This document shows, piece by piece, positions 35,083-55,660 of a stretch of DNA of 64,000 nucleotides (its first letter is position 1; each line of letters begins with the position of its first letter). Under the pieces are notes generated by a model that made no database searches, had not been told where the DNA came from, and saw only the letters and a list, made by a program, of their open reading frames with translations. Source of the DNA: an uncultured Candidatus Saccharibacteria bacterium (GTDB taxonomy: Bacteria; Patescibacteriota; Minisyncoccia; Phycocordibacterales; CAYGLL01); contig CAYGLL010000005.1 of NCBI GenBank assembly GCA_964350935.1, forward strand, positions 1,544 to 65,543, given 5' to 3'. The translations under genes were made by a program, and so were the position numbers.

Positions 35083-36144
35083 CTATTTAATTATTCTCAC
35101 CACCCCTTTATCTGCATCAACTTCCACTGAGTCGCCTGTTTTTAAAAATCTCGTCGCATATTTTGTTCCCATGATGCAGGGTTTTTTGAGTTCGCGGGAA
35201 ACAATCGCGGCGTGACACGTAAGCCCCCCTTCATCAGTTACAATTGCAGAACATTTTTTAATTAAATGCATGAGATGTGGATTCGAATTAATTGAAACAA
35301 GAATATCCCCCTCATTAAATTCAACTCCCGCACCGTCAATACTTAAAACTACGCGCGCAACCCCCTTTGCTTTTCCCTTGTACGCAATCTGGCCTTTAAG
35401 TTCTTGCGGCATTTCAACACTCACCTGCTCCAACTTTGAAACAATCGGCGATGTATCAGAAATCCAGTTAAGCGAAGACTTCTTATTTACAACCTGAAAA
35501 ATGAACTTTTTGTTATTTTTTCTTTCTTCCAACCGTGGGGCAATACCGCTTATATCTTTTCTGAGCAACTCATCAATGGTCATAAGCTGGATAGCCTTTT
35601 CCGGATCTGCAATTCCCTGTGATTTTAAAAAGGTGGCCCCCAAAGGAACAAGAATCTGCTGCATAATCGCCGGATAGAATGAGGTCGCACGCAAATGCTC
35701 ACAGGTGGCGAGCAATTCTTTGTCATCTTTCTGTGCAGCTGTTAAACCTAAGTGTATGAAGTGCGGCAACATCGTCGAATGAAACGCGACCTTAAAAAGA
35801 AAACTGACCGCATCGGGAATATTCTCAAACGCAGATACACCTAAAGCAACTTTGTCTTCAGCGATCGTATTGAGTCGATACGCTTCGGCTAAAAGTTCTC
35901 TGCATTTAAGAGGATTTTCAACTGCCAATTTCTTTACCGAATCCTTCAAATACTGAAGTTGCTCTTCAACTCGATAATGTCGTAATACTCCCTCGTGCTC
36001 TTCTACGAAAAGCACGTCAGAAACATCCATACCGATTAGTTCGCGAACGTAGTCAGCGTACCAGCAATACCACAGAGAACATCCGAACAAATTGAATGGA
36101 CGTGTCAGATAGTGAACCCATTTTTTTGAAGTATCATATAGCAT
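35083..36144 (-). CDS. PEP-utilising-enzyme mobile (phosphohistidine swivel) domain protein lacking an ATP-binding domain (paralog 1 of 4)
   Basis: 353 aa. C-terminal ILVSINSNPHLMHLIKKCSAIVTDEGGLTCHAAIVSRELKKPCIMGTKYATRFLKTGDSVEVDADKGVVRIIK matches the PEP-utilisers mobile domain (GGxT(S/C)HAAI(V/I)(A/S)RE..P.VVG) with the catalytic His conserved. The N-terminal ~260 aa are an unrecognised helical domain. Confidence 0.7.
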   Translation of the reverse strand: MLYDTSKKWVHYLTRPFNLFGCSLWYCWYADYVRELIGMDVSDVLFVEEHEGVLRHYRVEEQLQYLKDSVKKLAVENPLKCRELLAEAYRLNTIAEDKVALGVSAFENIPDAVSFLFKVAFHSTMLPHFIHLGLTAAQKDDKELLATCEHLRATSFYPAIMQQILVPLGATFLKSQGIADPEKAIQLMTIDELLRKDISGIAPRLEERKNNKKFIFQVVNKKSSLNWISDTSPIVSKLEQVSVEMPQELKGQIAYKGKAKGVARVVLSIDGAGVEFNEGDILVSINSNPHLMHLIKKCSAIVTDEGGLTCHAAIVSRELKKPCIMGTKYATRFLKTGDSVEVDADKGVVRIIK

Positions 36145-36146
36145 AT

Positions 36147-37580
36147 TTATTTAATTATCCTCACCACCCCTTTATCCGCATCAACTTCCACCATATCGCC
36201 GTCCTTCAGGACCTTCGTGGCGATCTTGGTTCCTACAATACAAGGCTTCTTAAGTTCACGTGCAACAATCGCGGCATGTGAAGTAATTCCACCCTCATCG
36301 GTCACAAAAGCGGAAGCGATCTTCATTGCCGGCGTATAATCAGGCATTGTCGTCCGTGCGACAAGGATATTTCCTTGCTTAACCTTTCCGAGGTCTTCTT
36401 TAGAAAACACGAGTGCAATCTGGCCTGTAACCTTTCCTTTGAACGCAGGAGTACCTTTAATATTCGTATCAGTCTCCACCTTCGTCACGATCTCAACCAC
36501 TTCAGTGACGAAGTCTTCCTCGGTGATCGTCTCCGTCTCACCTTGCCGGTAATAGAATACGAACAAGCCCGTAGTTCTCTTTTTGAGAGCATCGATATCC
36601 GGCAAAACTCCCGATTCAAGATAAGCTATTACTTCGCGATTCATGAGATAAGCCATATCTTTTGCGTCCACCGATGTTCCGCTTTCCGACATAGAGCGAG
36701 CCATTTTTTGAAACAAACCGCGCACGTGGACCTGAACCTTTTTAAAAATATCCACTCGTGCTGTACGCAAGTAGATGTATTTATTAATGAACTTCGCCCC
36801 AGCTTTTAAATAAGGATCTGTTATCTCATCTCTTGTTTTTTCAAAATGCTTTTTTCCTTCCTCGATATGGGAAAGGATACTTTCTTTTTCGATCCTCGCT
36901 TGATCTGCGGTCAACGACCCAACTTCTTTCTCAAAATATGTTTCGTCCCAAAGTGTCTCTACAAAAGAATACTCTCCACCCCATGAATAGTTCTGAGCGA
37001 GATCACTAATTCGTGCCTTGCGCTCGGAAAGAGGCGCGACGGCAGTATCACATACAGCGATCCTGATCTTTTGGTAATCAATGAGCTCCGTGGGAGATGT
37101 TATGGCTGCATAGATATCTTCGTATGTCTTTGGGTATGTTCCTTGAAGTTTCGCGAGATACACCGGCGTAAAATAATCTTCAAGTACCCACGGCATCCAA
37201 GCGTATGGGGCAATTTTCGGCATGAGTGTCAGCCACATCTTATACGCAATAAGTATTTCTTTTGAATCCGTATTCGTTCTTTTTATCTTCTCGATCGTTT
37301 CCTCACGAAATTTTTCAACCGCCTCATATTCATCGATATGTTTCTGCATCGACTCAGCGTCTTTGAAGACTTCTTTCAGATATTCAAATATCCAGTCCCG
37401 ATGAGTCCTGTCGATGTAATAACCTCGATTACCATTTCCAAGCGGAACAGTAACCACTGTCGGCTTTTTATCGTTCGACAATAGACTGACAAGCGCGGCG
37501 TATTCATCACGTTGGGTCGTTGACGGTCGCGAAGCCCAAAATACTACCTTCTTAAAAAAATCAGGAATTTTTTTACTCAT
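36147..37580 (-). CDS. PEP-utilising-enzyme mobile domain protein lacking an ATP-binding domain (paralog 2 of 4)
   Basis: 477 aa. C-terminal ILVARTTMPDYTPAMKIASAFVTDEGGITSHAAIVARELKKPCIVGTKIATKVLKDGDMVEVDADKGVVRIIK. The N-terminal ~370 aa are unrecognised. The last ~45 nt of the coding sequence are almost identical to paralogs 1 and 3. Confidence 0.7.
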   Translation of the reverse strand: MSKKIPDFFKKVVFWASRPSTTQRDEYAALVSLLSNDKKPTVVTVPLGNGNRGYYIDRTHRDWIFEYLKEVFKDAESMQKHIDEYEAVEKFREETIEKIKRTNTDSKEILIAYKMWLTLMPKIAPYAWMPWVLEDYFTPVYLAKLQGTYPKTYEDIYAAITSPTELIDYQKIRIAVCDTAVAPLSERKARISDLAQNYSWGGEYSFVETLWDETYFEKEVGSLTADQARIEKESILSHIEEGKKHFEKTRDEITDPYLKAGAKFINKYIYLRTARVDIFKKVQVHVRGLFQKMARSMSESGTSVDAKDMAYLMNREVIAYLESGVLPDIDALKKRTTGLFVFYYRQGETETITEEDFVTEVVEIVTKVETDTNIKGTPAFKGKVTGQIALVFSKEDLGKVKQGNILVARTTMPDYTPAMKIASAFVTDEGGITSHAAIVARELKKPCIVGTKIATKVLKDGDMVEVDADKGVVRIIK

Positions 37581-39007
37581 TTGATTATCCTCACCACCCC
37601 CTTATCTGCGTCCACTTCCACCATGTCACCATCTTTTAAAATTTGAGTTGCAAATTTAGTTCCGATAACACAAGGCTTATTGATCTCTCGAGAAACGATC
37701 GCCGCATGACAAAGCATGCCTCCAATGTCGGTTATGATCGCGCCTGCCTTATGCATTAAAACCACAAAGTCGGGCGTGGTCATAGTTGAAACCAAAACAT
37801 CCCCAGTTTCCATTTTTGCAAAATCATGTGTATTCATAATAACTTTTGCTGGACCGGTATAGTGCCCTTTATTACCAACCTGACCTCGTATTTCCTTATC
37901 TGAAATATTCGCCTCTGGAATCATTAATTTTTTTAAGCGTTCAACATCTTCGGGATCCTCACTAAAGAAAACTTTCTCTCCTTTTCCCGCAAATAAAATC
38001 GTGTCCATCGCTTGTCTACACTTTGCATTATTCTTTAATGTTTCTGCGTTTACACGCCCTTTCAACGCTTCAACCACTTCAACGTCAAGTTGTAGTAGCA
38101 ATTCCTGATAAGTAAGTCCGAACTTATTTCCGATAGCTTTGAGGTATGGCTGAGCTTTTTCTGACAACATAAAGAAATACTCAGCCCCTGCCTGTCGAAT
38201 ATATCCACAGTAGCTCATACATTTTGCATGAAAGGCAAGACTTTCTGAAACAGCGGGTAACGCCTTCCTCTTCGGGGTGTGCTCATCCGTAGCATGGACA
38301 ATCTGTTCATACAACCTTTCAACAGTGAGAGGTTCGCCGACAAGATTAGCAATTTCAATCCAGGCAAACCGCTGTGCATGATCTTTAAGTTTTTGGTAAA
38401 GCTCCTCATCTTTTTTTATTTCTTCAAGCGAGCGGCCACCGACCTCTTTTTTGAGCTCTACCACTTCTCTGTGCTGTTGATTTAGCGGCGTATCAAACTT
38501 TGGAATAGTTTCGGATAACAACTCTGCCGGAAATGACTCAGCCACTGCTGCATCTGCTAATTTTTCCTGCGCATGTTCTGAAAACTGCTCCGCTCCCAAC
38601 ATCCAAAGAAACGTGATCTTTTTTCCAAGAATAAGATATTCTGAAAAAGCCTCTGCGGTTAGTTTTTTATCTTTGAACGTTTTTCCAAAAACAACTGCCT
38701 CTCTAAAATAATCGTCAGAGACTGTGACCATATTCTTAAAGAAAGCTTCATCTTTTACTTCTATCTTCTGCCTGATTTGTTTTCCTATATTCTCGATCTC
38801 TGACTTTTTAATAAAAAAATTTCCTTGCGTGAGTACTGCCGTTCCGGATTCTTCTGTTTCTATTCCAAGCCTATCTGCCACTTCCCTGCTGAAGCAATCT
38901 GCCCAAAAACATGCGGAAAATAAATTTTGCTTCCAAAGACCGAAGAAATGATACGCCTTCGGATCAAAGTTTTTTAATACGGCCGATTTAAATTCAAAAG
39001 TATTCAC
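37577..39007 (-). CDS. PEP-utilising-enzyme mobile domain protein lacking an ATP-binding domain (paralog 3 of 4)
   Basis: 476 aa. C-terminal VLVSTMTTPDFVVLMHKAGAIITDIGGMLCHAAIVSREINKPCVIGTKFATQILKDGDMVEVDADKGVVRIIK. Overlaps paralog 2's start by 4 nt. Confidence 0.7.
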   Translation of the reverse strand: MNTFEFKSAVLKNFDPKAYHFFGLWKQNLFSACFWADCFSREVADRLGIETEESGTAVLTQGNFFIKKSEIENIGKQIRQKIEVKDEAFFKNMVTVSDDYFREAVVFGKTFKDKKLTAEAFSEYLILGKKITFLWMLGAEQFSEHAQEKLADAAVAESFPAELLSETIPKFDTPLNQQHREVVELKKEVGGRSLEEIKKDEELYQKLKDHAQRFAWIEIANLVGEPLTVERLYEQIVHATDEHTPKRKALPAVSESLAFHAKCMSYCGYIRQAGAEYFFMLSEKAQPYLKAIGNKFGLTYQELLLQLDVEVVEALKGRVNAETLKNNAKCRQAMDTILFAGKGEKVFFSEDPEDVERLKKLMIPEANISDKEIRGQVGNKGHYTGPAKVIMNTHDFAKMETGDVLVSTMTTPDFVVLMHKAGAIITDIGGMLCHAAIVSREINKPCVIGTKFATQILKDGDMVEVDADKGVVRIIK

Positions 39008-39012
39008 ACTAG

Positions 39013-41031
39013 TTAGGAAATAATTTTTACAATTCCCTTCTCTGCATCCACCTCGACCATATCACCGTCTTTGAGAGCTTGTGTTGCGCTTTTAGTTCCT
39101 ACGATACAGGGTATTCTGAGCTCCCTACTTACAATTGCAGCGTGACACACCACACCACCCTCATCGGTTACAATTGCGCTGCATTTTTTCATTGCAGGGA
39201 CATAATCAGGTGAGGTTGCATACGTAACCATGACATCACCGTCCTGAATTTCATCCAGATTTAATTTTGTGAGTACTAATTTTACTTTACCCGTCACAAC
39301 TCCCGGAGAAGCGGGCATACCTTTTAATTCGGGTGTTGATTCCACGCTGCTTTTCTCTAAAACTGCGTGGGCGTTTTTTAACTCGCCTGATAACTCACTA
39401 GCGGAAATGAGCTTCGATTTTCCACCAAGGGTTGCTAACACACAACCGTTCTTTCTGTCTTTGATCTGCTTAATTTCTTTTTCTGACAAAGAATCAATTC
39501 GGTAGACTTCATCGGGCGTGAAGAGATGTGCAACCGACTGATATTGTGGGTAGTTACCATCGATAAAATCAGTGAAAATACGGTCTCCTTCATCAGAATA
39601 TTCTTGAGTTTGCTCTCTCACTTTCAAGGCTTTCTTGCGCAATTCTTCAGGCACCTCACTTCTGTCCGGAATCACAAACACGTAAGCCATTGGCGACCAC
39701 CACCGCATCCAATTAGTGTAATATTCTTTCAACTCACCAACTGTCTGAATACGCTTTTTCTTTTGAACGTACGGTAGTAACTTCTCCCAATATTGATAAA
39801 ATTGGGCAGTAACTGCATCTAAAATTTTCGGATCTTTCTTAATTGCGGAAGCGATACGATCGAAGACCATTTCTATCTCCTTAAGATCGTAATACACTTC
39901 CAATACGCCAAGCTTGTTGAAGGAAAAAAGCATGTTCCGAATGTTAGTTTCTGGAACGTGTTCGTTAAAGAAATCTCTATTCGCCTCATTCCAAACATGG
40001 GCGTAAAACAAAGAGTGCTCACGACTCATATACTTACTGAGTACTATTTCTGGGTAAGAGTTCTTTTTTGAAAGCGTGGTTATCGGGCGGCTCTGAACGA
40101 TATAAAATTTGCCGGCTTCAAAAGCCCACTCGATATCACATGGAAAACCGTAATGGTTTTCGATTTTTAAAATAATCTCAGAAAGTTCGAGGATCTGCTC
40201 TGTGGTTAAAACCTGCGATGACGCTCGCGGTTCAGGAATGTCACGCCATTCATTGTTTCCATGTTCTGCGGAACTTTTTTCAGAACGATAGAGAGCGCGT
40301 TCCTGTGTCGAAACATTTACGTCTAAAATATTCCGTGGCTCTTTCTCCACCACATAGCTATCGGGTGTTATTTGCCCCGAAACAATCGCTTCGCCTAAAC
40401 CAAAACCCGCCTCAATAATGAGCTGGTTGTAATCTTCAGTCACCGGATGAACGGAAAACGCGATACCGCTCACTTCTGACTCCACCATATTCTGAACAAC
40501 CACCGCAACCGAAATCTTTGTCGCATGTAATCCTTTCTCAAATCGATAGAAAATGGCGCGTGGGGTGAAAAGCGATGACCAACAGCGTTTAACTTTTTCC
40601 AAAAGATCCACCTTCGTCGTGTTGAGATAACTTTCCAACTGACCCGCCCAGGCATGATCCATACCATCTTCAGCGGTCGCAGAAGAACGCACCGCAACAA
40701 AAGTTGTACCTAATTTTGCAAACTGTGACTCGATATCTTTTTTAATATCTTCCGGCATCTCCCGACTTAAAATCAAACCACGAATATCTTCTGAAGCGCG
40801 ATCAACCGTGTGAATCTCTTTATGATTCACCCTGCCAAGAATCGCATCGATCTCCTGAACCAGATCGGTTTCTTCGATGAATCGCTCAAAAGAATTCGAG
40901 AGTACAACAAATCCCGGCGGAACAGGAATTCCTGCCTGAGTCATCTCACCTAAAGACGCGCCTTTACCCCCAGCAAGAGAAGCATCTCCTTTATTCAAAG
41001 CATTGAAATTGCGCGTGAGTTCAGGCGACAT
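39013..41031 (-). CDS. PEP synthase / rifampin-phosphotransferase-like enzyme: N-terminal pyruvate-phosphate-dikinase-type ATP-binding domain plus C-terminal phosphohistidine swivel domain (no PEP/pyruvate TIM-barrel domain)
   Basis: 672 aa. The N-terminus (LAGGKGASLGEMTQAGIPVPPGFVV...FVAVRSSATAEDGMDHAWAGQLESYLN...VAVVVQNMVESEVSGIAFSVHPVT...CDIEWAFEAGKFYIVQSRPITTL) matches the PPDK_N/PpsA ATP-grasp domain. The C-terminus (VMVTYATSPDYVPAMKKCSAIVTDEGGVVCHAAIVSRELRIPCIVGTKSATQALKDGDMVEVDAEKGIVKIIS) is the mobile His domain. Domain order is ATP-grasp, middle domain, swivel, as in rifampin phosphotransferase. Confidence 0.8.
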   Translation of the reverse strand: MSPELTRNFNALNKGDASLAGGKGASLGEMTQAGIPVPPGFVVLSNSFERFIEETDLVQEIDAILGRVNHKEIHTVDRASEDIRGLILSREMPEDIKKDIESQFAKLGTTFVAVRSSATAEDGMDHAWAGQLESYLNTTKVDLLEKVKRCWSSLFTPRAIFYRFEKGLHATKISVAVVVQNMVESEVSGIAFSVHPVTEDYNQLIIEAGFGLGEAIVSGQITPDSYVVEKEPRNILDVNVSTQERALYRSEKSSAEHGNNEWRDIPEPRASSQVLTTEQILELSEIILKIENHYGFPCDIEWAFEAGKFYIVQSRPITTLSKKNSYPEIVLSKYMSREHSLFYAHVWNEANRDFFNEHVPETNIRNMLFSFNKLGVLEVYYDLKEIEMVFDRIASAIKKDPKILDAVTAQFYQYWEKLLPYVQKKKRIQTVGELKEYYTNWMRWWSPMAYVFVIPDRSEVPEELRKKALKVREQTQEYSDEGDRIFTDFIDGNYPQYQSVAHLFTPDEVYRIDSLSEKEIKQIKDRKNGCVLATLGGKSKLISASELSGELKNAHAVLEKSSVESTPELKGMPASPGVVTGKVKLVLTKLNLDEIQDGDVMVTYATSPDYVPAMKKCSAIVTDEGGVVCHAAIVSRELRIPCIVGTKSATQALKDGDMVEVDAEKGIVKIIS

Positions 41032-41498: not shown

Positions 41499-41526
41499 GA
41501 CACCCGCACCGGGTGTCTTTTTTTAT
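41499..41526 (+). terminator. Rho-independent terminator
   Basis: GACACCCG-CAC-CGGGTGTC followed by TTTTTTTAT. Confidence 0.6.
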
Positions 41527-41562: not shown

Positions 41563-43245
41563 TTATTCTGAAACTGTTTCCGAGGGAACTTCCTCCGACA
41601 CCACCTCAGTGGGAGTTGTTGGCTCAGTAGTTTGAGCGGGCTCAGTTTCTACAATTGTTTCAGGGGGATTTTCTGTTTCAACAGGATCTGAAGTAGAAAC
41701 CGGCGGTTCCGGAACCCCTTCAGGTTCAGCTGGCACCGAAGATGCTGGGATTTCAGAAACTGGCTCTAATTCAGGTTCATCGTTAGTGACTTCTTCTGGA
41801 AGAGTTTGCTCCTGAACATCTTCTGATTCATCAACAACTGATTGATCTGACGTTCCCGCCCCCGAGGTTCCGTGCGGTTCTTCCGGAACAATCTCTGGTG
41901 TTAGAGACTCTTCTTCTACAATCTCAGGCACCGGAGTTTCTACTACAACTTCTTCTGAAGAGGAACTCTCCGTTGAGGTTGCCGGCGACTCAACAATTGA
42001 ACTTTCTTCTACAACCACCAGTTCATCTTTCAAAACTTCCTGAACAGGCACTGCATCATTATTGTTCGCAAACCCCGGTGTCGGAATAGGGTCAATGCGC
42101 GGACCTAAACCATCAGGAATACGTGCGTATGATTTGTTCGGTGGAACAACCCCACATACCCCTCCCGCAGTCGAAGAACCGTTTGCTGTTCCCGCGGTTG
42201 GCTCATGCTCACACACGTCATGTCCGTCATAGGCAAACGTATCAGTGAGTTCGTTCTGAAGATTGTAAAGGCGAACCTCGTCGTGATCATTATCAAGAAT
42301 TGCCTTATTGAGATATACCGCGAGCCATCCGTGCGCCGGAATAGTTGTCTCACCACTATTCGTATTCACCGAACTTATGAAAACCTTATTTGAATTATCT
42401 ACGCTTCCGTCCCAAATATACCAACCATTCACATTAATTGAGGTCGATGCATTGTTGTACAACTCCACCCACTCACCCTGAGGTTTGAGACTCGCGTCAT
42501 CGCCAAAATCAAAACCAAAGGCCGAGCCTTCCGGATTGGGGAGAAACTCATTGATTACAATCTGTCGGGCACGGAAGGTGAGATGGATACGCTCCTCATC
42601 TCGATAACCACTCCCCGGAGTTTGACTGACTGATCCTCGATAAACGAGATCGACCGTACACAAATCTCCCTGAGGAATCTGTGCGGTGTTACCTGTCATC
42701 GTGAACGTGAGTGGCCAGGCGGTTTGTGACGTTGTTGTTCCGGTTGAAAGCGCGAGAAGCGGTCCTTCATACGAGAACGGATCAGACGCTGTCGATGCAA
42801 CCTGAATAAGACTACAAAATGCGTTACTTCCCCCGGTTTTCTCAGCCTTAATCGTGTACTGCAATGGAAATGCGTCCGGAACTGAAACCGCACCCGGAGA
42901 AATTAGTAAACTCGAGCCGTCTTCTGTTCCAATGTAGACATTCGTACTGTCGCCTGACTCTAGTGTGAAGTCGAGAGTTCCCGCACGAAGCGAGTTTCCC
43001 TGCGAGCGATCTATATCAATGAAGTATGAGAACGTATAACCGGCACTCTGTGTAAGAAGTGCAACGACAATGAGACAGGCAAGAATAATGCTGCCTGAGG
43101 AAACCAGTGAGCGTCTCCCTTTAGTTTCGTGAGCCGATTTCAACCGAAAAGTTTTCTGCACAAGAGAAAGGGGGCGGCGAACACGCACATCCTGAAACGG
43201 ACGCGCTCGCACCACCGCTGTCTTTTTTAATTCAATACTTCTCAT
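41563..43245 (-). CDS. Secreted lamin-tail-domain (LTD) protein with SipW-cognate-type signal peptide and acidic Glu/Pro/Thr/Ser-rich C-terminal tail
   Basis: 560 aa. After the N-terminal TM, AGYTFSYFIDIDRSQGNSLRAGTLDF resembles the SipW-cognate signal class (F(S/F)D.E.S.GN.F.AG.LD). The central IVINEFLPNPEGSAFGFDF...EWVELYNNASTSINVNGWYIWDG...IPAHGWLAVYL matches the LTD. The C-terminal ~180 aa are E/P/T/S/V-rich. Confidence 0.6.
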   Translation of the reverse strand: MRSIELKKTAVVRARPFQDVRVRRPLSLVQKTFRLKSAHETKGRRSLVSSGSIILACLIVVALLTQSAGYTFSYFIDIDRSQGNSLRAGTLDFTLESGDSTNVYIGTEDGSSLLISPGAVSVPDAFPLQYTIKAEKTGGSNAFCSLIQVASTASDPFSYEGPLLALSTGTTTSQTAWPLTFTMTGNTAQIPQGDLCTVDLVYRGSVSQTPGSGYRDEERIHLTFRARQIVINEFLPNPEGSAFGFDFGDDASLKPQGEWVELYNNASTSINVNGWYIWDGSVDNSNKVFISSVNTNSGETTIPAHGWLAVYLNKAILDNDHDEVRLYNLQNELTDTFAYDGHDVCEHEPTAGTANGSSTAGGVCGVVPPNKSYARIPDGLGPRIDPIPTPGFANNNDAVPVQEVLKDELVVVEESSIVESPATSTESSSSEEVVVETPVPEIVEEESLTPEIVPEEPHGTSGAGTSDQSVVDESEDVQEQTLPEEVTNDEPELEPVSEIPASSVPAEPEGVPEPPVSTSDPVETENPPETIVETEPAQTTEPTTPTEVVSEEVPSETVSE

Positions 43246-43802
43246 TAGTTTGTTTCGATTTCTTTACGGCGACTTCGACGCAGGTACATAACCTCACGAA
43301 CAATGCGCATACTTTCATCAACGATGATAATTCCAGCCGGAATTCCGATGAGAAGTAAAAAACCAACGGGCTGGCGCGCAAAATCCAAAATGTAACCGGC
43401 GTACGGCACGTCAAACGCAACGCGTCCGATCACCTCACGAAACGCTACCGGTGATGGATCAATTTCTTCATTTGCATCTCCTTTGGTGGTGAATTCTGTT
43501 GATTCACCTTCGCCTTCAATCGATACGATGCGGTGCGTTGTTGGAATCTGACGCTTAGTGTCTTCTCCGAATGTAATAACATCGCCCACAGCATATGAGT
43601 CGGCAGACTTAACAACAACAATTGAACCTGTGGTAATTGCCGGCTCCATTGAGCCTGATTTCACAATCTTTATTTCAATATTTCCGGGAACACGTACCAG
43701 AGAAACAAGAAATAGTCCGGCCACTGCAACAAGAACAACAATAAAGACAGCGTAGAAAAAGCTTGAGAGAAATGTGGTGAATCGTTGTAATGAAGTGTTC
43801 AT
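43245..43802 (-). CDS. Signal peptidase I, SipW/archaeal type (S26B)
   Basis: 185 aa. VKSGSMEPAITTGSIVVVK (SGSMEP catalytic Ser box), THRIV, and TKGDANEE (GDxN) boxes. N- and C-terminal TM helices as in B. subtilis SipW. Its start overlaps the LTD gene. Confidence 0.8.
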   Translation of the reverse strand: MNTSLQRFTTFLSSFFYAVFIVVLVAVAGLFLVSLVRVPGNIEIKIVKSGSMEPAITTGSIVVVKSADSYAVGDVITFGEDTKRQIPTTHRIVSIEGEGESTEFTTKGDANEEIDPSPVAFREVIGRVAFDVPYAGYILDFARQPVGFLLLIGIPAGIIIVDESMRIVREVMYLRRSRRKEIETN

Positions 43803-43820
43803 AGTATTACTTTCTAACTC

Positions 43821-44996
43821 CTACCAGCGCGACGAATGTGAATTGTTGGAATTAGTGCGGTTGTTGTTACCACCACGACTATCGCTACCACGCGACTCGC
43901 TATCATTTTCTAATGGACAGTAAACCGTATTACTTTTCTCAAATTTATTTTTCAATGTTTCGTAATTCCCTCCCGGATAGACCGCGTTGAACATACTAAT
44001 CACCTGCGCCGTCGTGTACGGATAGTCGACATCACCGCTTGCAGCATTCAAAAGTGCGGCAACCGTTTGCCGACCCAACGCATTTAATCCGCCACCGCCC
44101 TGAGCAAGAACCTGTAGCAATGTTTTCCCTGGAAAGGCATTCTTAAACACTTTCGAGAATTTTTTCGACGGTGTATACGGGGACGCCCAATCATCGAAAT
44201 GATGTGACTGCTTCCAGTAACCAGGACTGCACCCTTCCTCTTCGTTACTATTCCCTGTGCAGAGAAACTGCGGATTTTCGTTTGACGGTAACGCGCGAAT
44301 TCCCACGTCGACGGTCATAACATCGCTTTGCGCCGCATTTCCAAGCACACTTCCGTCACAGGTGAGCTTGGCCGTCTGAAGATTGACCGTAAGATTTCCG
44401 GCACACCAGTAGATACCCACGTAGCGCACCTGATTAATTCCGCACGCATTGTTGTTTTGTGAATCTCCGACTGCATACGTCGTGTTGTTCAACAAGGTTG
44501 AGGCTGCCTGATCGCCCGTGCTCCCGAAAACAGGCTTCTCATTTTTCTCGAAAACGTTATCGCCGTCGTCGATCCAGGCAAAGAATTCCATACCTTGAGC
44601 AAGTTCACCGTGTGCAAGATCACTGTCAACCTGACCCTCGGGTTCGTTGACACCGTTATCGGTGTTGGTGAGATTTTTAAAATCAAGACAAAGCCACGCA
44701 GATTTTTTCTTGATGTGCATACTGATCGTCGTCTTTCCTGAGTCTCCCGGCTTGATGTCGTTAAACTTGAAGAAACGATCGGCGGTTGGTATCAAATTCT
44801 TCAACGACCACGTTGAACCGGGAACGAGCAAACCATTGTACGTTGAGTAACTGTCGATCTTAAGATCAATCCCCTCAGTTGCAAACGTAATCCCCGGCTC
44901 AACACTGCGCGCAAGAAGAGACGCGACTAAAAGCCCGGATATGCCGAAGATGATGATGCCTCGCACCGCTATTCTTTTAATCGCGCCTGAAATCAT
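43821..44996 (-). CDS. TasA/camelysin-like secreted protein (divergent paralog)
   Basis: 391 aa. N-terminal TM then SVEPGITFATEGIDLKIDSYSTYNG, a degenerate SipW-cognate signal. Body composition and conserved blocks are similar to the two downstream paralogs (e.g. FFAWIDDGDNVFE, LTCDGS...NAAQSDVMTVDVGIRALPSNENPQFLC). Gly/Asn/Ser/Arg-rich C-terminal tail. Confidence 0.5.
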   Translation of the reverse strand: MISGAIKRIAVRGIIIFGISGLLVASLLARSVEPGITFATEGIDLKIDSYSTYNGLLVPGSTWSLKNLIPTADRFFKFNDIKPGDSGKTTISMHIKKKSAWLCLDFKNLTNTDNGVNEPEGQVDSDLAHGELAQGMEFFAWIDDGDNVFEKNEKPVFGSTGDQAASTLLNNTTYAVGDSQNNNACGINQVRYVGIYWCAGNLTVNLQTAKLTCDGSVLGNAAQSDVMTVDVGIRALPSNENPQFLCTGNSNEEEGCSPGYWKQSHHFDDWASPYTPSKKFSKVFKNAFPGKTLLQVLAQGGGGLNALGRQTVAALLNAASGDVDYPYTTAQVISMFNAVYPGGNYETLKNKFEKSNTVYCPLENDSESRGSDSRGGNNNRTNSNNSHSSRW

Positions 44997-45014
44997 ACGA
45001 ACTGAAGTACGTTT

Positions 45015-46994
45015 TTAATTTGCTGTTATTGTTGCACCATCAAGACGGAAGCTTTCGTTTCCACCATTAGAATCAGCTGAGAAACGAATAAAGAAGGTCG
45101 AGTTGTTAAGTGATGCCGGGAGATTGATTGTCTGAAGAACACTCCACGGCTCGGTTACGTTGTTATTTCCATCATCAAGCTCGTGAGATGCGAGTGCCGT
45201 CAACGTACCGGGTGCGGCACAGGTTCCGGAAGTAAAGTAACTCACAGATCCTGTTTCGTTGTCTTCTGCTTCTGTGTCTCCACGCCAGTAGTAGTTCAGT
45301 ACCAAATTACTCAAACCGGTAGCGTTCACACTGCGACACAGGTAACCATTGTTTCCTGACAAGAGACCGAAGCGTCCACCCTCAGGACTTACCGTATTGT
45401 CGCCACTTCCAGTAGCAGCTGCGACAGTGCCGTTGGTACAACTCTCACCTGCATCCTCGTCCCATCCTGGGATATCCGTAAGACACGTCCCCGTTCCAAA
45501 GTTTTCATTCAAAACTGTAGGACTTGGTGAAGGCGACGGGAGTGGAGATAGAGCGGGAATATCATCGTCATTCGTGATCGTACACGTAATTGCTTCACCT
45601 TCATCAAGAATGGCGGAACCGCCGAGAACAGCCGGGCATTTCGCACTTCCGGTAATTGAAACAAAGTGATATCCGGCGCGGCCATTTTCGTTAATGCTAT
45701 GGGGCGAGTTCGCTGAAACTGCAACTGAAGTATTGTTAGGAACAACAGCGTCATCAATTTTAAGACCCCAGGCAGAGTTTGCGGTTGCCGTACCGTTGTT
45801 ATCATTGATCACTGATTTAATGAGCGTGATATTGGCCGGGAGATCGTTGTTGGTGATGGTACAAACTTTTTCATCGCCGGGATTTAACGTAAGCTGACCT
45901 GACTCATCACAGTCACCGCTAAATGAAGCTACGTAACCCGAAACACCCGTTTCTGTAATCGTATAATTACCTTCAGCCACCAACGTTGGAACGTTTGATG
46001 TTACCGGAACTTCGTTAACACCATTATCAACAAAGAGTTGGAAGTCCGGCACGACGTTGTTTCCACCGTTGTCATTTGTCACCTCTTTGATGACCGTAAT
46101 CGTAGCCAAGCGCGGCTTCTCTCCCCCACAGAGAAAGTTAGGATTGTTGCGGGACTGAATGGCACGAAATGCAATATCGAGCGTGGCACCATCAGTCTGC
46201 GTCAGGTTATTGAGCGCAGTTCCGTCACAGGTTATCCCTGAAGCGATCGAAGGATTTACACCGCCTCCTTCGGCAACAGGACTTAGGCTCAGGTTTCCAA
46301 AGCACCATGCTTTTGCAATGTAGGTGGTTGTGTTTGCAATAACTGGTCCCGGAATGTCGGTCCAAACATTGTGTTCGCTGTCCGCAAGTGCGACTGAGAA
46401 CGGACCGGTGGTTGAGGCGAGTGCAAACAGTGTCTGAATCCCACTTGAAACTGTTTGCTCATCAGCCTCATACACATTGTCACCGTCATCCGCCCACCAG
46501 AAGAACTGGAGATTCTGCGCAAGTTCGCCGTCCCAGGTATTGTTGATGTTTTCCGGCGTATCGCCGTCAACCAATTCCGGCTCGCTTGATGAGCGATCAT
46601 CGTTTGAGGTCAAGGAAACATCCATGCATGCCCATGCATCGTTTTGAACATGGAGCGAGATCGTATCTTCACTCTCATCATCAGGCTTAAGATCAGTGAA
46701 GTTGAAAAAGAGACGGCCGTTTGAAAGATCATCTAAATTCCAGCTTGTGGTACAGGTTGTTCCAGAAACCGGATACGGGGCCGTACCAACCCACTGCCAG
46801 ACATTCTCCTCAACTTCCGTACAACGATTACCGTTGTAGTAGCTGTCGTTATCAACCTTAAGGTCGATCGATCCCGCGGCAAAGGTGTTGCCGGTTGAAG
46901 ACTCGGTGTCGCTGAAGAATGCACCGGTTGCGCCTGAGGCGATAACCGCCGCCGCTCCACCAATGAATATGAGACTTAAAATAATTCGTCGCAT
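45015..46994 (-). CDS. TasA/camelysin-like secreted protein with additional Ig-like C-terminal domains
   Basis: 659 aa. N-terminal GATGAFFSDTESSTGNTFAAGSIDLKVD is a textbook SipW-cognate signal peptide. The TasA-like core (FFNFTDLKPDDESEDTISLHVQNDAWACMDVSL...FFWWADDGDNVYE...ITCDGT) is followed by ~300 aa of beta-rich domains. Confidence 0.65.
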   Translation of the reverse strand: MRRIILSLIFIGGAAAVIASGATGAFFSDTESSTGNTFAAGSIDLKVDNDSYYNGNRCTEVEENVWQWVGTAPYPVSGTTCTTSWNLDDLSNGRLFFNFTDLKPDDESEDTISLHVQNDAWACMDVSLTSNDDRSSSEPELVDGDTPENINNTWDGELAQNLQFFWWADDGDNVYEADEQTVSSGIQTLFALASTTGPFSVALADSEHNVWTDIPGPVIANTTTYIAKAWCFGNLSLSPVAEGGGVNPSIASGITCDGTALNNLTQTDGATLDIAFRAIQSRNNPNFLCGGEKPRLATITVIKEVTNDNGGNNVVPDFQLFVDNGVNEVPVTSNVPTLVAEGNYTITETGVSGYVASFSGDCDESGQLTLNPGDEKVCTITNNDLPANITLIKSVINDNNGTATANSAWGLKIDDAVVPNNTSVAVSANSPHSINENGRAGYHFVSITGSAKCPAVLGGSAILDEGEAITCTITNDDDIPALSPLPSPSPSPTVLNENFGTGTCLTDIPGWDEDAGESCTNGTVAAATGSGDNTVSPEGGRFGLLSGNNGYLCRSVNATGLSNLVLNYYWRGDTEAEDNETGSVSYFTSGTCAAPGTLTALASHELDDGNNNVTEPWSVLQTINLPASLNNSTFFIRFSADSNGGNESFRLDGATITAN

Positions 46995-47136
46995 AATTTC
47001 TAATAATTTATCCCCCGCTTTGGTTCCCTCAAATGGAGTTTGTTAATAATTAATATAAACTGCACTTTCGTTTACAACCCGTCGCGCGCCACAGTACGTG
47101 ACGCGCAAGCCGGTTATAAGCGAATAGCTTAGAAAA

Positions 47137-48309
47137 CTAGTTTGGTAGGAGTGAAACCGAGTTCGTAATGGTACACGTCGGGTTAACACCTGCCACTACG
47201 TTCATCGTTCCTACGCCAGTGTCTCCAACTTCAGAACATCCACCGCTAAATGACGCGTTGAACGTCACGTTAGCTGGATCACCAGAATAGACTTCAGAAA
47301 TTGAGTACGTTCCAATCGGAAGACCTGCGGTCGCAGCTTCGTCAGCTACAACTTGTGGAGCTCCTGGTCCGTCAATAGTGAGAGTAAAGTCGGTTACATC
47401 AACTCCTGCAATTTGCTGGTTTGAGAAAGTAACAATCTTATCAACTGTCACCGTTGCTGTCTCTTGCGGAGGAGGTGTCGGGGTTACTTCTGGATTACAG
47501 AGGAAGTTTTCGTTGTTTCGTGACTGAACTGCGTCAAACGAAACATCGACTGAAATTCCATCAGTCTGACCGATGTTAGTTGCCTCAGAACCATCACAAA
47601 CAAAACCTGTTCCAACAGTGAGTGGACTGCGTCCTTCTTCAGCGCCAGCTACAACAGGTGATGCTGTAATTTCACCGTAACACCAGTACTTCGCAATATA
47701 GCGGGTACTGTCGCCCGGGAGAACCTCCTCACCCCAGACATTGTTGTCTGAGTCAGCAAGTGCCCACGTACCATTGTTTGCGGCAAAGAGGGTTGCAGCG
47801 CTTCCCTCTGCAAAGATGGTCTCACCAACTTCGTACACATTGTCACCGTCATCACCCCACCAAGCGAAGTTGAGTTCGTTTTGGAGCTCGCCATCTGGGC
47901 CATCATCCTGAAGATCTCCCTCAGGTTCTGTGACCGTGTTCTCAGGGGTTGCTGTCAACGTAACATCCATACAAGCGTATGAATCGTTATTGTTCACGTG
48001 AAGTGAAATAGTGTCCTCGCCAATATCTCCTGGCTTTACGTCAGTAAAGTTAAAGAAAAGTTCGTTGGTAAGATCTGCAAGTGCCCATGAGGTTGCTGAA
48101 CTCAAAGCTAACGCTCCTGTTGGATCTACAAATCCTGGAATTGTGTAGTCAGTTGCGTAACTTGTGTTATCGATTTGTAAATCAATCTCTCCAGCGGCAA
48201 ACGTGTTGCCGGTTGAAGTTTCTGAGTCCGAAAAGAATGCACCGGTTGCGCCGACAGCGAGGGCGCCGACGAAGGTGATCATTCCCAGACCAATTAATAT
48301 TTTTCGCAT
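47137..48309 (-). CDS. TasA/camelysin-like secreted protein
   Basis: 390 aa. N-terminal GATGAFFSDSETSTGNTFAAGEIDLQID SipW-cognate signal. The same core blocks as 45015-46994 (FFNFTDVKPGDIGEDTISLHVNNNDSYACMDVTL, FAWWGDDGDNVYE, FVCDGS...QTDGISVDVSFDAVQSRNNENFLC). Confidence 0.65.
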   Translation of the reverse strand: MRKILIGLGMITFVGALAVGATGAFFSDSETSTGNTFAAGEIDLQIDNTSYATDYTIPGFVDPTGALALSSATSWALADLTNELFFNFTDVKPGDIGEDTISLHVNNNDSYACMDVTLTATPENTVTEPEGDLQDDGPDGELQNELNFAWWGDDGDNVYEVGETIFAEGSAATLFAANNGTWALADSDNNVWGEEVLPGDSTRYIAKYWCYGEITASPVVAGAEEGRSPLTVGTGFVCDGSEATNIGQTDGISVDVSFDAVQSRNNENFLCNPEVTPTPPPQETATVTVDKIVTFSNQQIAGVDVTDFTLTIDGPGAPQVVADEAATAGLPIGTYSISEVYSGDPANVTFNASFSGGCSEVGDTGVGTMNVVAGVNPTCTITNSVSLLPN

Positions 48310-48492
48310 TGTTAATTCAATTAAGATACTACTTATAATTTATTTCCCCCGACCACTCATCAAGACTCGATAGACTTTCACTGGCTGATTCAGGACCATA
48401 CTGCGATGAAGTCCTGATCAGTGCGGGGGTTACTAATTCCTCCTGCATTCCACACACAGAATTACCTGCGTCGACCTATGGAATGTGCTGCA

Positions 48493-48537
48493 GTCGGGGA
48501 AAACGAGAGAATAAGGCTTTCCATCGTTTTCCCCGAC
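48493..48537. promoter_or_regulatory. Perfect 14-bp-stem hairpin in the 620-bp non-coding region upstream of the TasA-like cluster
   Basis: GTCGGGGAAAACGA-(17 nt)-TCGTTTTCCCCGAC. The surrounding region 48310-48935 has only short overlapping ORFs of poor coding character. Confidence 0.3.
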
Positions 48538-48935
48538 AACGCAAAACGGCCCTCGGTGGTCGAGAGCCTGACAACTTACAAACAAGAAACTTTAAAGGTA
48601 CACACGCGAACAAAGAACATGACAGTTCAAAGAGAACTAATAAGAGCTCACGTGCGGTTTCCCGGCGCACAGGTATCAAGTGTGCTGCCAAGCGGTGCAC
48701 CTCGTCAATGATTTTTTTGGTTTTTTCGCACGATGAAAAACGTAAGTCCTTGAGTGTCAATCGCTGTCCTTGTGACCCATGTAGAAATCAACCGATGAGC
48801 CACAAAAAACTTTGTCCTCAAGAGCGTCTCTGAAAAAAAAATTAAAAATACGTTTTTCTAAAAAACGAGTGCCTCACTGCAGCTCAACTTATCAACGTCT
48901 GATCCACAGTCTTTCCCCAGACTTTTCCCCTTTTA

Positions 48936-52462: not shown

Positions 52463-52579
52463 GGAGTATATAAATAATTAACGGTGGAGCCATCATACAA
52501 TAAGTATGAAAAATACGGAACTCCCCCGCTTTTTCGTGAAAAAGCGGGGGAGTTTCTCAAGTTAGTCGCGCCAAACGTC

Positions 52580-53884
52580 TTAACTTACGATACGACTGAT
52601 CTCTTCAAGCGTGGTGACGCCGAGACGAACTTTTTCAAGTGCATCCTCACGGAGCGTCTTCATGCCGACCTCTTCCATATGGGTTTCGAGTTCTTTCATC
52701 GGCACATTTTGTACGATTGATGAGCGCATAATGTCGTCGAACTCAAAGATTTCAAAAACACCAATGCGTCCCAAAAATCCGGTGTGATCACACTTCTCGC
52801 ACCCGGCTCCTTTCATAAATTTCCAGCCACTCTCACGCAACGCAAACTGATCTACCAGTTTGTCGCTCGGTGTATAGGGAGCAACACAGGTTTTACACAC
52901 CCGGCGTACGAGACGCTGTGAAATAACACCGTTGATAGCATAGGCGATCATGGCACGCTCGATGTTCATATCAATGAGACGTGCAATCGTACCAACCGTA
53001 TTATTCGAGTGGATCGTCGAACCGACAATGCGGCCAACCAACGAAATACTAATTGCGTTTTCAGCCGCAACCCTGTCGCGGATCTCACCGATCATCAAAA
53101 TATCGGGGTCCTGGCGCAACATGGAACGTAGTGCGCTGTCAAAATCAAAACCGCGTTCAGGCTTGAGCTCGCTTTGGCGCAACCACTCAAGGTGAAACTC
53201 AACCGGGTCTTCAAGTGTCATGATATTTTTTACATCACTCTTCATTTCCTGCATCAGTGAATACAATGTGGTGGTTTTACCTGCACCAACCGGACCCGTG
53301 ATCAAAATCATGCCGTAATCTTTGGAAATGATTGACTGAACTTTTTCAAGCGCATGCTCGTCCATTCCCAACTGATTCAAGGTCATCAAAGCGTCGAGAC
53401 GATTCAAAAGCCTCGCAACCAAAATCTCACCATTAACACTCGGAAAAACCGAAACACGAATATCGAGCACTCGTTGCTGCTCGTGGTGCTGCGGTTCCAC
53501 CTGCGGATGAGTCGCCGCCTTTTTATTAAGTGCTTTGAAATTTTCAGCTATTTCATCGTATGCCGACTTGTCGGAGTGGTGTGCTTCTTTCTTTTGGCTC
53601 TCGTCGACACGCTCGTAAAGTTCAAAGTGGCCGTCTTGAGGACGTTCACGATTTGCAATATCAAGGTTTGCCGCAACCTTGATCGTGTTGATGATCTGAT
53701 CCGCCTCATATCGTGGGAGACTCCAGCGGTTTTGGAGAGCGCCATCGATACGGAAACGAATGCGCATAACATTCATTAATTGCTCAAAGTGAATGTCGGA
53801 GGTTCTGTCGTGAATGGCGCGATCAAAAATGTAGGCCACAAATTCTTCCGGACTCATCTCTTTGTTTTCCTCTTTTACAAACAT
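52580..53884 (-). CDS. Type II/IV secretion-system ATPase (PilB/GspE family)
   Basis: 434 aa. Walker A ILITGPVGAGKTTTL, Asp box, Walker B DPDILMIGEIRD, His box (GSTIHSNNTVG), and a C-terminal tetra-Cys (CKTCVAPY...GAGCEKCDHTGF). The N-terminal domain is short compared with canonical PilB. Confidence 0.85.
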   Translation of the reverse strand: MFVKEENKEMSPEEFVAYIFDRAIHDRTSDIHFEQLMNVMRIRFRIDGALQNRWSLPRYEADQIINTIKVAANLDIANRERPQDGHFELYERVDESQKKEAHHSDKSAYDEIAENFKALNKKAATHPQVEPQHHEQQRVLDIRVSVFPSVNGEILVARLLNRLDALMTLNQLGMDEHALEKVQSIISKDYGMILITGPVGAGKTTTLYSLMQEMKSDVKNIMTLEDPVEFHLEWLRQSELKPERGFDFDSALRSMLRQDPDILMIGEIRDRVAAENAISISLVGRIVGSTIHSNNTVGTIARLIDMNIERAMIAYAINGVISQRLVRRVCKTCVAPYTPSDKLVDQFALRESGWKFMKGAGCEKCDHTGFLGRIGVFEIFEFDDIMRSSIVQNVPMKELETHMEEVGMKTLREDALEKVRLGVTTLEEISRIVS

Positions 53885-53973: not shown

Positions 53974-55266
53974 TTACGAGATGCGTCCTTTTGAAAAACG
54001 GCTGAGACGCGTATACAGTTGAACCCCAAACTCAAAAAGAAGCGTCACGCTCGTAAACGACAAAACACCGACAGCGATACCACCCAGAACGTCAGAAAAC
54101 CAATGCACTCCGAGGTACATACGACTAAAACCCACCGTGAGGATGGCAAGTGTAGCGAGCGACAAAACAAGAGTTTCCGAATAGCCTTTTTTCACGCGTC
54201 GAATAAGAATATAGGCGATCAACAGAAAGAAGACCGTTGCAGTCGAAGTGTGGCCGCTGGGAAAACTATAGGAAAAAAGTCCGGGAACATTAAAGCCCGG
54301 CGGACGGGGCAACATCAAAATCTCCTTGAGCGATAAGGTCACAACGTAACCCGCGCCGCTCGTCACGAGAACGAGGAGAGACTCGAACCACCGACGCTTG
54401 AACGCCAAGAATGCGACGAGAGTGACAGTTAACACTGCGAGCGGTCCGGAGTTAAAGAAAAACGACGCGGTTAAAAAAATATAGTCGAGAACCGACACAT
54501 GAACCGCGGGCAATGAAACATACTGATAGAGAACCGTATCAACCTCCGAGAAAAAGGTTTTTGAAACCAGATCTTCAATCAACTTACCCAGAAGAAAAAC
54601 AGAAAGCACGAGCGCGGTAAACGCGTAAATCTTAAAGGATTCTATCTTTTTAAAAAGTGGGCGTAATGAACGGAAACTTAAAATGAGCAACACTCCCAGA
54701 ATAACCGCCGTGAGAAAAATGCGCCCAACCTTGGGGGCAACAAGTTCAAATCCGTAGCCAAAGAAAAACCCAATGTAGACGGTTAAAAATCCCCAAAATG
54801 CGCTTCCGGCGATTGAAAAAATGGCGAAGCGCGGAAGCTTGCAACCGACAACTCCCGCTAAAAACGGTGCGAACACCCGAACCGGAAAGATAAAGCGGCC
54901 GAGCGTCAGTGACTTCCCCGTATGATCGTGTACAAACTTTCTGACCCGTTCGATACGTGATTCTTCAACTGAAAAAATACCCGCCATGCGCACGAGAAAC
55001 GGATACCCGAGCGAGACACCGAGTCGGTATGCGGTAAAATCTCCGACAATAAGACCCGCGGTCACAATCGTCAGAACCGTTACGATGTTGAGCTCGCCTT
55101 GATTGGCAAAAAAACCTCCGACGTGCGCGACCGTGGCGCCGGGACTTATGAGTCCCAAAAAGGGAATCGACTCAAAAAATGAGGAGAAAAAAATAACCAC
55201 GTACCCCCAGGTACGGATAACCTCAAGCGGCATATGAGCCAGACTGTATCCTAGATCATGGAACAT
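53974..55266 (-). CDS. Fusion membrane protein: N-terminal DedA/SNARE-associated domain plus C-terminal PAP2 (type 2 phosphatidic-acid phosphatase) domain
   Basis: DedA region (VIFFSSFFESIPFLGLISPGATVAH...VTAGLIVGDFTAYRLG). PAP2 motifs KxxxxxxRP-like (LKEILMLPRPPG), PSGH (YSFPSGHTSTA), and SRxxxxxHxxxD (FSRMYLGVHWFSDVLGG). The start is taken at the internal Met (MFHDLGYS). The listed ORF extends further upstream into the non-coding hairpin region. Confidence 0.6.
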   Translation of the reverse strand: MFHDLGYSLAHMPLEVIRTWGYVVIFFSSFFESIPFLGLISPGATVAHVGGFFANQGELNIVTVLTIVTAGLIVGDFTAYRLGVSLGYPFLVRMAGIFSVEESRIERVRKFVHDHTGKSLTLGRFIFPVRVFAPFLAGVVGCKLPRFAIFSIAGSAFWGFLTVYIGFFFGYGFELVAPKVGRIFLTAVILGVLLILSFRSLRPLFKKIESFKIYAFTALVLSVFLLGKLIEDLVSKTFFSEVDTVLYQYVSLPAVHVSVLDYIFLTASFFFNSGPLAVLTVTLVAFLAFKRRWFESLLVLVTSGAGYVVTLSLKEILMLPRPPGFNVPGLFSYSFPSGHTSTATVFFLLIAYILIRRVKKGYSETLVLSLATLAILTVGFSRMYLGVHWFSDVLGGIAVGVLSFTSVTLLFEFGVQLYTRLSRFSKGRIS

Positions 55267-55331
55267 TAGTAAGAATTTTAACACGAAACAACAGCACACC
55301 CGCCGACAGTAAAGAATTTTCCGCAACGAGC

Positions 55332-55376
55332 GAAAAGAAAAAGTCCCACCAAGCCAATGCACAGGCTCGGTGGGAC
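55332..55376 (-). terminator. Rho-independent terminator hairpin 1 of 3 in the queA-downstream non-coding region
   Basis: Minus strand: GUCCCACCGAGCCUGUGCAUUGGCUUGGUGGGAC followed by UUUUUCUUUUCG. Confidence 0.55.
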
Positions 55377-55499
55377 AATCGACGGAGGAACTGCACTGCA
55401 CGCGCTTCGAGAAAACCTCGAAAGCAACGAGCCCATACTTTAGCAAAGGCAATTCTTTTTTGCAAGCACGAGCGGAAAAGTCTCAAAAATGGCTCAAAA

Positions 55500-55542
55500 C
55501 AAAAAGAAAAAGTCCCACTAAGCAATCCTTGCTTAGTGGGAC
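55500..55542 (-). terminator. Rho-independent terminator hairpin 2 of 3
   Basis: Minus strand: perfect GUCCCACUAAGCAA-GGA-UUGCUUAGUGGGAC followed by UUUUUCUUUUU. The stem and trailer are nearly identical to hairpin 1. Confidence 0.6.
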
Positions 55543-55660
55543 GGGCCGCGGGTAGCGATGGGGACTGGCCGAGAAAGAACAAAAATCCTTGCCTAGAGTG
55601 TAGCATGGAAAAGAACCTCAGCAAGCCAAAAAAGTGGATAACCTTCGACCGATTCTCGTT

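Follow-up and report, generated by a model that had tools for sequence, protein, structure and literature searches.

Five co-directional genes lie on the minus strand at positions 41563–48309 of the DNA analysed here, a 64,000-nucleotide (nt) stretch of contig CAYGLL010000005.1 (GenBank assembly GCA_964350935.1, an uncultured Candidatus Saccharibacteria bacterium) that is referred to below as the window, and they probably encode an extracellular fibre of the TasA kind. In the order in which they would be transcribed, they are T390 (47137–48309; 390 amino acids (aa)), T659 (45015–46994; 659 aa) and T391 (43821–44996; 391 aa), which are paralogs of one another, followed by the signal peptidase SipW185 (43245–43802; 185 aa) and LTD560 (41563–43245; 560 aa), which carries a lamin-tail domain (LTD). 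Spacers within the block measure 18–142 nt and the open reading frames (ORFs) of SipW185 and LTD560 share 1 nt in an ATGA overlap. The genes can be taken as real because T390 and LTD560 have many database homologs (at least 1802 and 346, respectively), nearly all from Patescibacteria/Parcubacteria-type metagenome bins, and the window derives from an organism of this type. A first-pass annotation, made from the letters alone, had called all five ORFs at these coordinates and on this strand, and every motif that it quoted is present (T390, GATGAFFSDSETSTGNTFAAGEIDL; T659, GATGAFFSDTESSTGNTFAAGSIDL; LTD560, FSYFIDIDRSQGNSLRAGTLDF; SipW185, SGSMEP/THRI/GDAN).

T390 and T659 are canonical (‘C-type’) subunits of the TasA superfamily and share 43% identity over 410 aa (E = 6e-79), with T391 standing further apart (33–35% identity to either over ~270–296 aa, E ~1e-39), and the core common to the three paralogs amounts to 250–290 aa. 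T390 consists of a signal peptide (aa 1–24), a predicted donor strand (25–40), a beta-sandwich core (41–275) and a CnaB/SpaA-like domain (285–387). The larger T659 has the donor-strand motif at aa 26–41 (46872–46919, minus strand), a core at ~42–292, two CnaB/SpaA_2 domains at 297–476 (PF19403 SpaA_2, 43.5 bits) and a C-terminal domain of ~170 aa (490–659) for which no Pfam match was found, even at E ≤ 10. Extra Ig-like domains had been ascribed to one paralog only, a count that has to be revised, with one CnaB/SpaA-like domain in T390 and two in T659. These three domains (47149–47457 in T390 and 45567–46106 in T659, minus strand) have a lysine in the first strand, a glutamate (YxIxE), an asparagine in the last strand (CTITN) and a pair of cysteines, the T659 motifs being ITVIKEV/YTITE/CTITN and ITLIKSV/HSINE/CTITN. 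As far as sequence motifs can indicate, the Lys/Glu/Asn pattern is typical of domains with intramolecular isopeptide bonds.

Both C-type subunits have SipW-cognate signals, matching TIGR04088 at 22.8 bits (T390) and 20.2 bits (T659) against a cut-off of 19, as the first-pass annotation had predicted. The match of T390 to PF12389 (M73/camelysin/TasA) is above threshold (32.3 bits; cut-off, 22.5) and covers profile positions 6–50 of 196 only, corresponding to the signal peptide and the first strand, while T659 falls under the gathering cut-off of the same profile (19.3 bits) and the TasA equivalog NF046066 reaches 13.4 bits against a cut-off of 450. The description ‘TasA/camelysin-like’ consequently holds by sequence only for the first ~50 residues, the signal and donor-strand region, and fails for T391 and LTD560. 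Some homologs are named ‘M73 family metallopeptidase’ by NCBI, and with PF12389 matching T390 the paralogs could be read as camelysin-type (M73) metalloproteases. The confinement of that match to the signal and first strand speaks against this, the M73 peptidase label is itself regarded as a probable misidentification (PMC11580942), and no HExxH motif occurs in T390, T659 or T391, so that the name is unsupported for these proteins; the protease reading was rejected as extremely improbable.

The N-terminal similarity to TasA extends beyond the signal. When the T390 family was aligned with TasA using hhalign (the TasA sequence was 100% identical to PDB 8AUR), only residues 1–51 aligned (probability 88%, E = 3e-6), with a register that places the TasA cleavage site A27|A28 on A24|F25 of T390. 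In this register, T390 residues 25–40 fall on TasA 28–42, and TasA residues 28–38, the experimentally defined donor strand (PMC9674648), fall on T390 25–36. The predicted donor strand of T390 (FFSDSETSTGNTFAAG; aa 25–40; 48190–48237, minus strand) directly follows the predicted SipW cleavage site A24|F25, and the post-cleavage segment FFSD.ETSTGNTFAAG is the best-conserved stretch of the family. Across 122 aligned members, the conserved positions of the region are T22 (120), A24 (118), D28 (117), S32 (121), G34 (120), N35 (121), F37 (113) and G40 (121), and in the core K92 is found in all 122 and E98 in 120. In the monomer model of T390 described below, aa 15–39 are the least confident part (predicted local distance difference test (pLDDT) <50). 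Strong conservation together with disorder in the monomer would be expected of an intermolecular strand and fits, without proving, the suggestion that T390 and T659 polymerise by N-terminal donor-strand exchange.

The family alignment was the basis for an AlphaFold2 monomer model of T390 with a mean pLDDT of 81, in which most of the core (aa 44–270) exceeds 85. A Foldseek search with this model ranked TasA (8aur_A) second (E = 1.9e-4, probability 1.0) and also listed AbpA, an archaeal bundling pilin (E = 5.6e-3); the core thus matches fibre-forming TasA, AbpA and thread subunits. The check on fold that had been proposed for the TasA-like cores thus favours the TasA fibre fold for the modelled T390, and the T390-family core is best described as a TasA-superfamily beta-sandwich at the level of predicted fold, strongly diverged in sequence. 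Its own features include four invariant cysteines (C113, C210, C238 and C271), an invariant acidic loop (DDGDN..E..E, aa 153–163) and, after the first strand, ~25 additional residues ahead of the KPGD strand. Strand-swapped subunits of this type could in principle build a two-dimensional surface layer or sheath covering the cell in place of a fibre. Across the whole core, the closest structural matches come from linear filaments held together by donor strands, and one donor strand per subunit gives linear connectivity and no lattice, which makes a layer quite improbable.

SipW185 is a signal peptidase I of the endoplasmic reticulum (ER)/archaeal type (TIGR02228, 111.2 bits; cut-off, 51.85), with transmembrane segments at its N- and C-terminal ends and, as the nearest solved structures, the human SEC11A/C catalytic subunits (E ~4e-9). 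The predicted catalytic residues, Ser51 (SGSMEP), His90 (THRI) and Asp109 (GDAN), align with the SEC11A/C motifs and constitute a Ser-His(-Asp) set rather than the Ser-Lys dyad of LepB; S51, H90, D109 and D115 are conserved in 100% of 61 Patescibacteria orthologs. At 114.7 bits, the protein remains under the cut-off (190) of the Bacillus SipW equivalog NF046067 and is therefore SipW-class by type and not an ortholog-level SipW. It lies among its presumed substrates in the operon and would be the enzyme that cleaves them.

The distribution of the system was explored with a scan of one genome per species in GTDB using two family motifs, in which 312 relatives were confirmed, and the best 78 loci, all from Patescibacteria, were analysed with 10-kb flanks. 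The closest of these 78 loci belong to metagenome-assembled genomes (MAGs) of Paceibacterota, Zambryskibacteria, Vogelbacteria, Taylorbacteria and Kaiserbacteria. The loci hold one to four tandem core genes (mode, 3), and the order of core genes, SipW and LTD-type protein is invariable, with all genes on one strand. A SipW185 homolog lies directly downstream of the core genes and on the same strand in 64 of the 64 loci that are not cut by a contig end. The other 14 of the 78 are cut short rather than SipW-negative, because their contigs end within 1.26 kb of the last core gene. An N-domain of the LTD560 type follows SipW in 34 loci, and a few more have a match to the LTD domain only. The first-pass description of a SipW-type peptidase embedded among its cognate substrates is borne out by this gene order; it had named missing profile matches, an absence of SipW homologs from related genomes and unrelated folds as outcomes that would tell against a fibre locus, and none of these was obtained.

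LTD560 begins with a basic cytoplasmic N-terminus (aa 1–45), a transmembrane segment (~52–66) and a donor-strand-like motif (74–89; 42979–43026, minus strand), followed by an Ig-like beta-sandwich (~90–226), the lamin-tail domain (227–339; PF00932, 49.5 bits, above cut-off) and a tail at aa 396–560. Both the LTD domain and the long acidic tail had been recognised in the first pass, and the composition of the tail (39 Glu, 27 Val, 23 Pro, 21 Ser and 18 Thr; net charge, −45) agrees. The N-domain has no Pfam match, even at E ≤ 10. Past the transmembrane segment, the LTD family has the consensus T.A|YF.D.E.S..N.F.AG.LDF, which mirrors the cleavage site and strand of the subunits on an unrelated Ig-like body; the signal region of LTD560 aligns weakly with the subunit profile (hhalign, E = 1e-3), and several members of its family carry PF12389 matches. 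The N-terminus of TapA mimics the TasA donor strand in the same way (PMC9674648), and by analogy LTD560 would be a TapA-like partner, a putative nucleator or anchor.

A closer association of peptidase and partner is found in 17 of 60 loci, in MAGs from many independent studies, where SipW is fused to an LTD-type protein, its apparent substrate. In these fusions of 288–731 aa (loci L007, L011, L013, L016, L022, L026, L032, L034, L036, L043, L048, L055, L058, L066, L073, L074 and L076) the SipW ORF runs on in frame: a basic linker leads to a third transmembrane segment, after which come the cognate motif (e.g., GSTVSYFNDMEASLGNFLKAG), an extracellular region, mostly with an Ig-like domain, and an acidic tail. 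The topology agrees with that of the separate SipW185 and LTD560 and, by the Rosetta-stone argument, the fusion of the two points to a one-to-one functional tie between SipW and the LTD-type substrate.

The third paralog, T391, is a divergent (‘D-type’) subunit with the same core and without the AFFSD..STGN donor-strand motif, its signal running directly into RSVEPGITFATEGIDL, and it is the sole one of the 122 aligned members that lacks N35. Core genes were sorted by their N-termini into C (with the AFFSD..STGN strand) and D (signal, then ..G(I/T)TFAT.G.DLKIDS). The arrangement C-C-D followed by SipW, as in the window, is the commonest single architecture (14 loci), and ?CCD, CCCD and ?CD variants also occur. 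In all but one case, the D-type gene is the last before SipW, a pattern that recurs in ~20 of 64 loci. In seven loci (L009, L024, L027, L029, L068, L069 and L079), the gene immediately upstream of SipW is not of the D type and belongs instead to a third class of core paralogs, in which the TasA-like core is preceded by a further N-terminal domain (motif ..NPAGLLYKL..).

T391 also possesses a Cys-flanked C-terminal module of ~105 aa (aa ~255–363; 43896–44213, minus strand; GCSPGYWKQSHHFDDW...GGGGLNALGRQTVAALLNAAS...YCPLE) without a Pfam match, even at E ≤ 10. The module is 55–70% identical to standalone secreted proteins of 110–230 aa (259 matches), with relatives in MAGs of unrelated phyla (Gaiellaceae, Limnocylindrales, Gemmatimonadales and Steroidobacteraceae), a striking level of conservation across phyla. 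PF27764 is present in some of the relatives, and DUF4215 or thrombospondin-type repeats are attached in some.

Taken together, the locus is best explained as a self-contained five-gene operon, widespread in Patescibacteria (candidate phyla radiation (CPR) lineages of the Paceibacteria/Parcubacteria type), whose products most likely form a TasA/BsaA/AbpA-like extracellular fibre, a reading given a rough probability of 0.6. In such a system, the three paralogs and the LTD protein would be exported by Sec and cut by SipW185 after the conserved T-x-A site (A24|F25 in T390), and cleavage would bare the N-terminal strand, which the beta-sandwich core of the adjoining subunit would take up, as in TasA. 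T390 and T659 would form the shaft, because each has both a strand and an acceptor core, with the CnaB-like stalks and variable head domains projecting from it. As T391 has an acceptor core without a donor strand, it would be confined to one end of the fibre, as a FimH-like cap or tip, and LTD560, which has a donor-strand motif without a TasA-like core, would be confined to the other, where it would supply a strand as the nucleator or anchor. Growth might be distal, the assumption made for TasA, or might proceed at the base with SipW serving as its platform, the mode to which the fusions point.

Several results weigh against the fibre reading. Recognition by the peptidase might be the sole function of the conserved N-terminal segment, and two of the four presumed substrates are not recognised by the relevant profiles, with LTD560 and T391 matching neither TIGR04088 (E ≤ 0.1) nor PF12389 and T391 having no Pfam or NCBIfam match at all. 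The fold match to TasA is moderate (template modelling score, 0.44, normalised to TasA) and beta-sandwiches are common. A profile of 56 family members had no match among PDB sequences and the core-only hhalign comparison with TasA was not significant (probability 1.4%), so homology beyond the N-terminus rests on fold; the core-only alignment is collinear, with the invariant KPGD strand on NLKPGD of TasA and the N245..Q248..F258..Q262 strand on NKYQ..FSFEATQ. The subunits are also much larger than TasA and have four invariant cysteines and a DDGDN loop, none of which exist in TasA, and assembly could differ as a result.

If the N-terminal motif served recognition only, the proteins might be monomeric secreted or surface adhesins that are processed by SipW and whose stalks and heads bind host or substrate individually. 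Set against this is the extent of the conservation, which continues for ~16 residues beyond the predicted cleavage site and reaches the positions of the TasA donor strand, and the resemblance of the core to the fibre-forming TasA, AbpA and thread subunits. Further, a recurrent strand-less paralog and a strand-only partner are hard to explain without strand exchange, and individual adhesins are accordingly viewed as rather unlikely.

A fibre by donor-strand exchange leaves room for a more specific and tentative proposal, namely that the subunits form an ordered heteropolymer with three roles (a strand-less tip, a CnaB-decorated shaft and a strand-only LTD base), an arrangement so far undescribed for the TasA superfamily and rather unlikely to apply in full. 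In such a polymer, the T391-class tip may carry an exchangeable head module and the LTD base may be membrane-tethered, in about a quarter of lineages by covalent fusion to the peptidase. The peptidase may double as an assembly platform, linking the cleavage of each incoming subunit to the insertion of its strand at the base of the fibre.

Downstream of the operon, a G+C-rich inverted repeat at 41499–41517 (no strand assigned), 46 nt past the LTD560 stop codon, is a probable operon terminator, found in the terminator scan as a consensus match only (8 pairs, 6 of them G-C). On the other side, T390 is separated from the upstream ATP-binding cassette (ABC) transporter genes by an unusually long non-coding gap of 626 nt (48310–48935, minus strand) with no long minus-strand ORF, Rfam match or strong sigma-70 promoter. 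The gap presumably holds the operon promoter and leader, and it could contain a leader or regulatory element of the operon. Promoter-like sites were no more numerous than expected by chance, and the Rfam and tRNA scans of the window returned no matches.

The genes beyond the gap, on the same strand, encode an ABC ATPase, a MacB/FtsX permease, an HlyD-type adaptor and an ATPase of the PilB/GspE family (52580–53884, minus strand; 434 aa; T2SSE, 328 bits). From this adjacency, the first-pass annotation had derived a composite appendage locus in which a MacAB-type exporter and PilB would export or assemble the TasA-like proteins. A precedent exists in C. perfringens, where type-IV-pilus-dependent secretion of BsaC connects type IV pili with the sipW-bsa operon (PMC11580942). 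The association is not maintained elsewhere, with MacB within 10 kb of the TasA-like genes in 0, HlyD in 1 and PilB in 3 of the 78 loci. In the window, the operon is set apart from these genes by the 626-nt gap and terminator-like hairpins, among them a G+C-rich hairpin of 16 bp at 52519–52554 between PilB and the adaptor gene. The surroundings of PilB in the window include no PilC, PilM or pilin genes, its other neighbours being a PAP2/VTT membrane protein and QueA. On the strength of the synteny and of a PilB without pilus-gene neighbours, the composite locus was rejected as very improbable, and the exporter and PilB are unrelated neighbours.

Two further features of the surroundings were observed. 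Four tandem paralogs of phosphoenolpyruvate (PEP)-utilising enzymes (353, 477, 476 and 672 aa) occupy 35083–41031 on the minus strand and all end nearly alike, in the mobile-domain sequence ...DGD(M/S)VEVDA(D/E)KG(V/I)V(R/K)II(K/S); the 672-aa paralog, the only one scanned against Pfam, has a PPDK N-terminal ATP-binding domain. The AT skew rises to 0.36 at 54001–56000, compared with ~0.16 or less in every other 2-kb interval, and this coincides with the Phe/Leu-rich ORF of the PAP2/VTT membrane protein (53974–55452, minus strand).

Patescibacteria represent a large share of bacterial diversity, and attachment to host cells is their presumed way of life. The publications found on their surface appendages concern type IV pili (e.g., PMC11623550), and a strictly conserved TasA-type operon would add a second candidate attachment or matrix structure. 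Should the three-role arrangement apply, the fibre would rank among the major surface appendages of Paceibacteria-type episymbionts, either in addition to type IV pili or instead of them. With its strand-less subunit class, strand-only partner and repeated fusion of peptidase and partner, the locus is also a compact natural test case for the initiation and termination of donor-strand fibres. The suggestion that databases do not annotate such a locus holds only in part. Names that homologs already bear include ‘TasA family protein’, ‘M73 family metallopeptidase’ and ‘SipW-dependent-type signal peptide-containing protein’, and PF12389 homologs in Patescibacteria have been listed in passing (PMC9245690), while no description of the Patescibacteria operon, its subunit classes, the LTD partner or the peptidase-substrate fusions was found in the literature searches. 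The present labels ‘M73 metallopeptidase’ and ‘hypothetical’ are uninformative or misleading for these genes.

The kind of system is already known, as TasA/TapA/SipW in Bacillus, BsaA/BsaB/SipW in Clostridium and AbpA/AbpB in archaea. With tapA-sipW-tasA of Bacillus subtilis (TasA fibres, PDB 8AUR; TapA as nucleator), the operon shares a dedicated ER/archaeal-type signal peptidase whose gene lies between those of its substrates, an N-terminal motif (T.A|.F.D....TFA.G.LDL) extending over the cleavage site and the donor strand of TasA, a beta-sandwich/jelly-roll core with a KPGD strand and a second substrate with a donor-strand-like N-terminus on an unrelated beta-sandwich, TapA in one case and LTD560 in the other. 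It differs in its order (subunits, sipW, partner), in having one to four subunit paralogs compared with one, and in a peptidase that scores below the equivalog level of Bacillus SipW. The core is ~40 residues longer than that of TasA and undetectable as TasA by sequence, with its invariant cysteines and DDGDN loop. The subunits add C-terminal CnaB-like and variable domains and include a class without a donor strand, and the partner, unlike TapA, combines a lamin-tail domain with a long acidic tail and is of a type that is fused to the peptidase in some loci.

The sipW-bsaA-bsaB-bsaC operon of Clostridium perfringens likewise combines several TasA-family paralogs with SipW, with donor-strand exchange predicted via residues ~28–38. 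Descriptions exist, for BsaA, of TasA-family paralogs that share operons with SipW and SpaA domains and assemble in this way and, for the TasA family, of multi-paralog operons with SpaA domains and signal peptidases (PMC11580942). BsaA has an Asn two residues before the donor-strand Phe (N35/F37), as does T390 (N35/F37), and BsaB is, like T391, a paralog with different assembly behaviour. In contrast, there is no equivalent here of the vWA-domain protein BsaC, and a link to type IV pili is unsupported by synteny. BsaA possesses an N-E-K triad (Asn in the donor strand, Lys and a catalytic Glu in the acceptor) with an intermolecular isopeptide lock, and the invariant N35 in the donor strand and K92 in the KPGD strand could form a similar lock. 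The isopeptide-forming clade has so far been reported mainly from Clostridia, not Patescibacteria (PMC11580942).

The archaeal bundling pili AbpA/AbpB (Pyrobaculum calidifontis, PDB 7UEG) and Sulfolobus threads (7PNB) have single-domain subunits with no sequence similarity to the operon, and their loci have no dedicated signal peptidase (PMC9245690). In chaperone-usher pili (FimH/FimA), the shaft subunits similarly unite a donor strand and an acceptor groove and the tip has a groove without a strand and an extra domain, so that T391 would correspond to FimH. Chaperone, usher and outer membrane have no counterpart here, the folds and the secretion route are unrelated, and the analogy is functional only.

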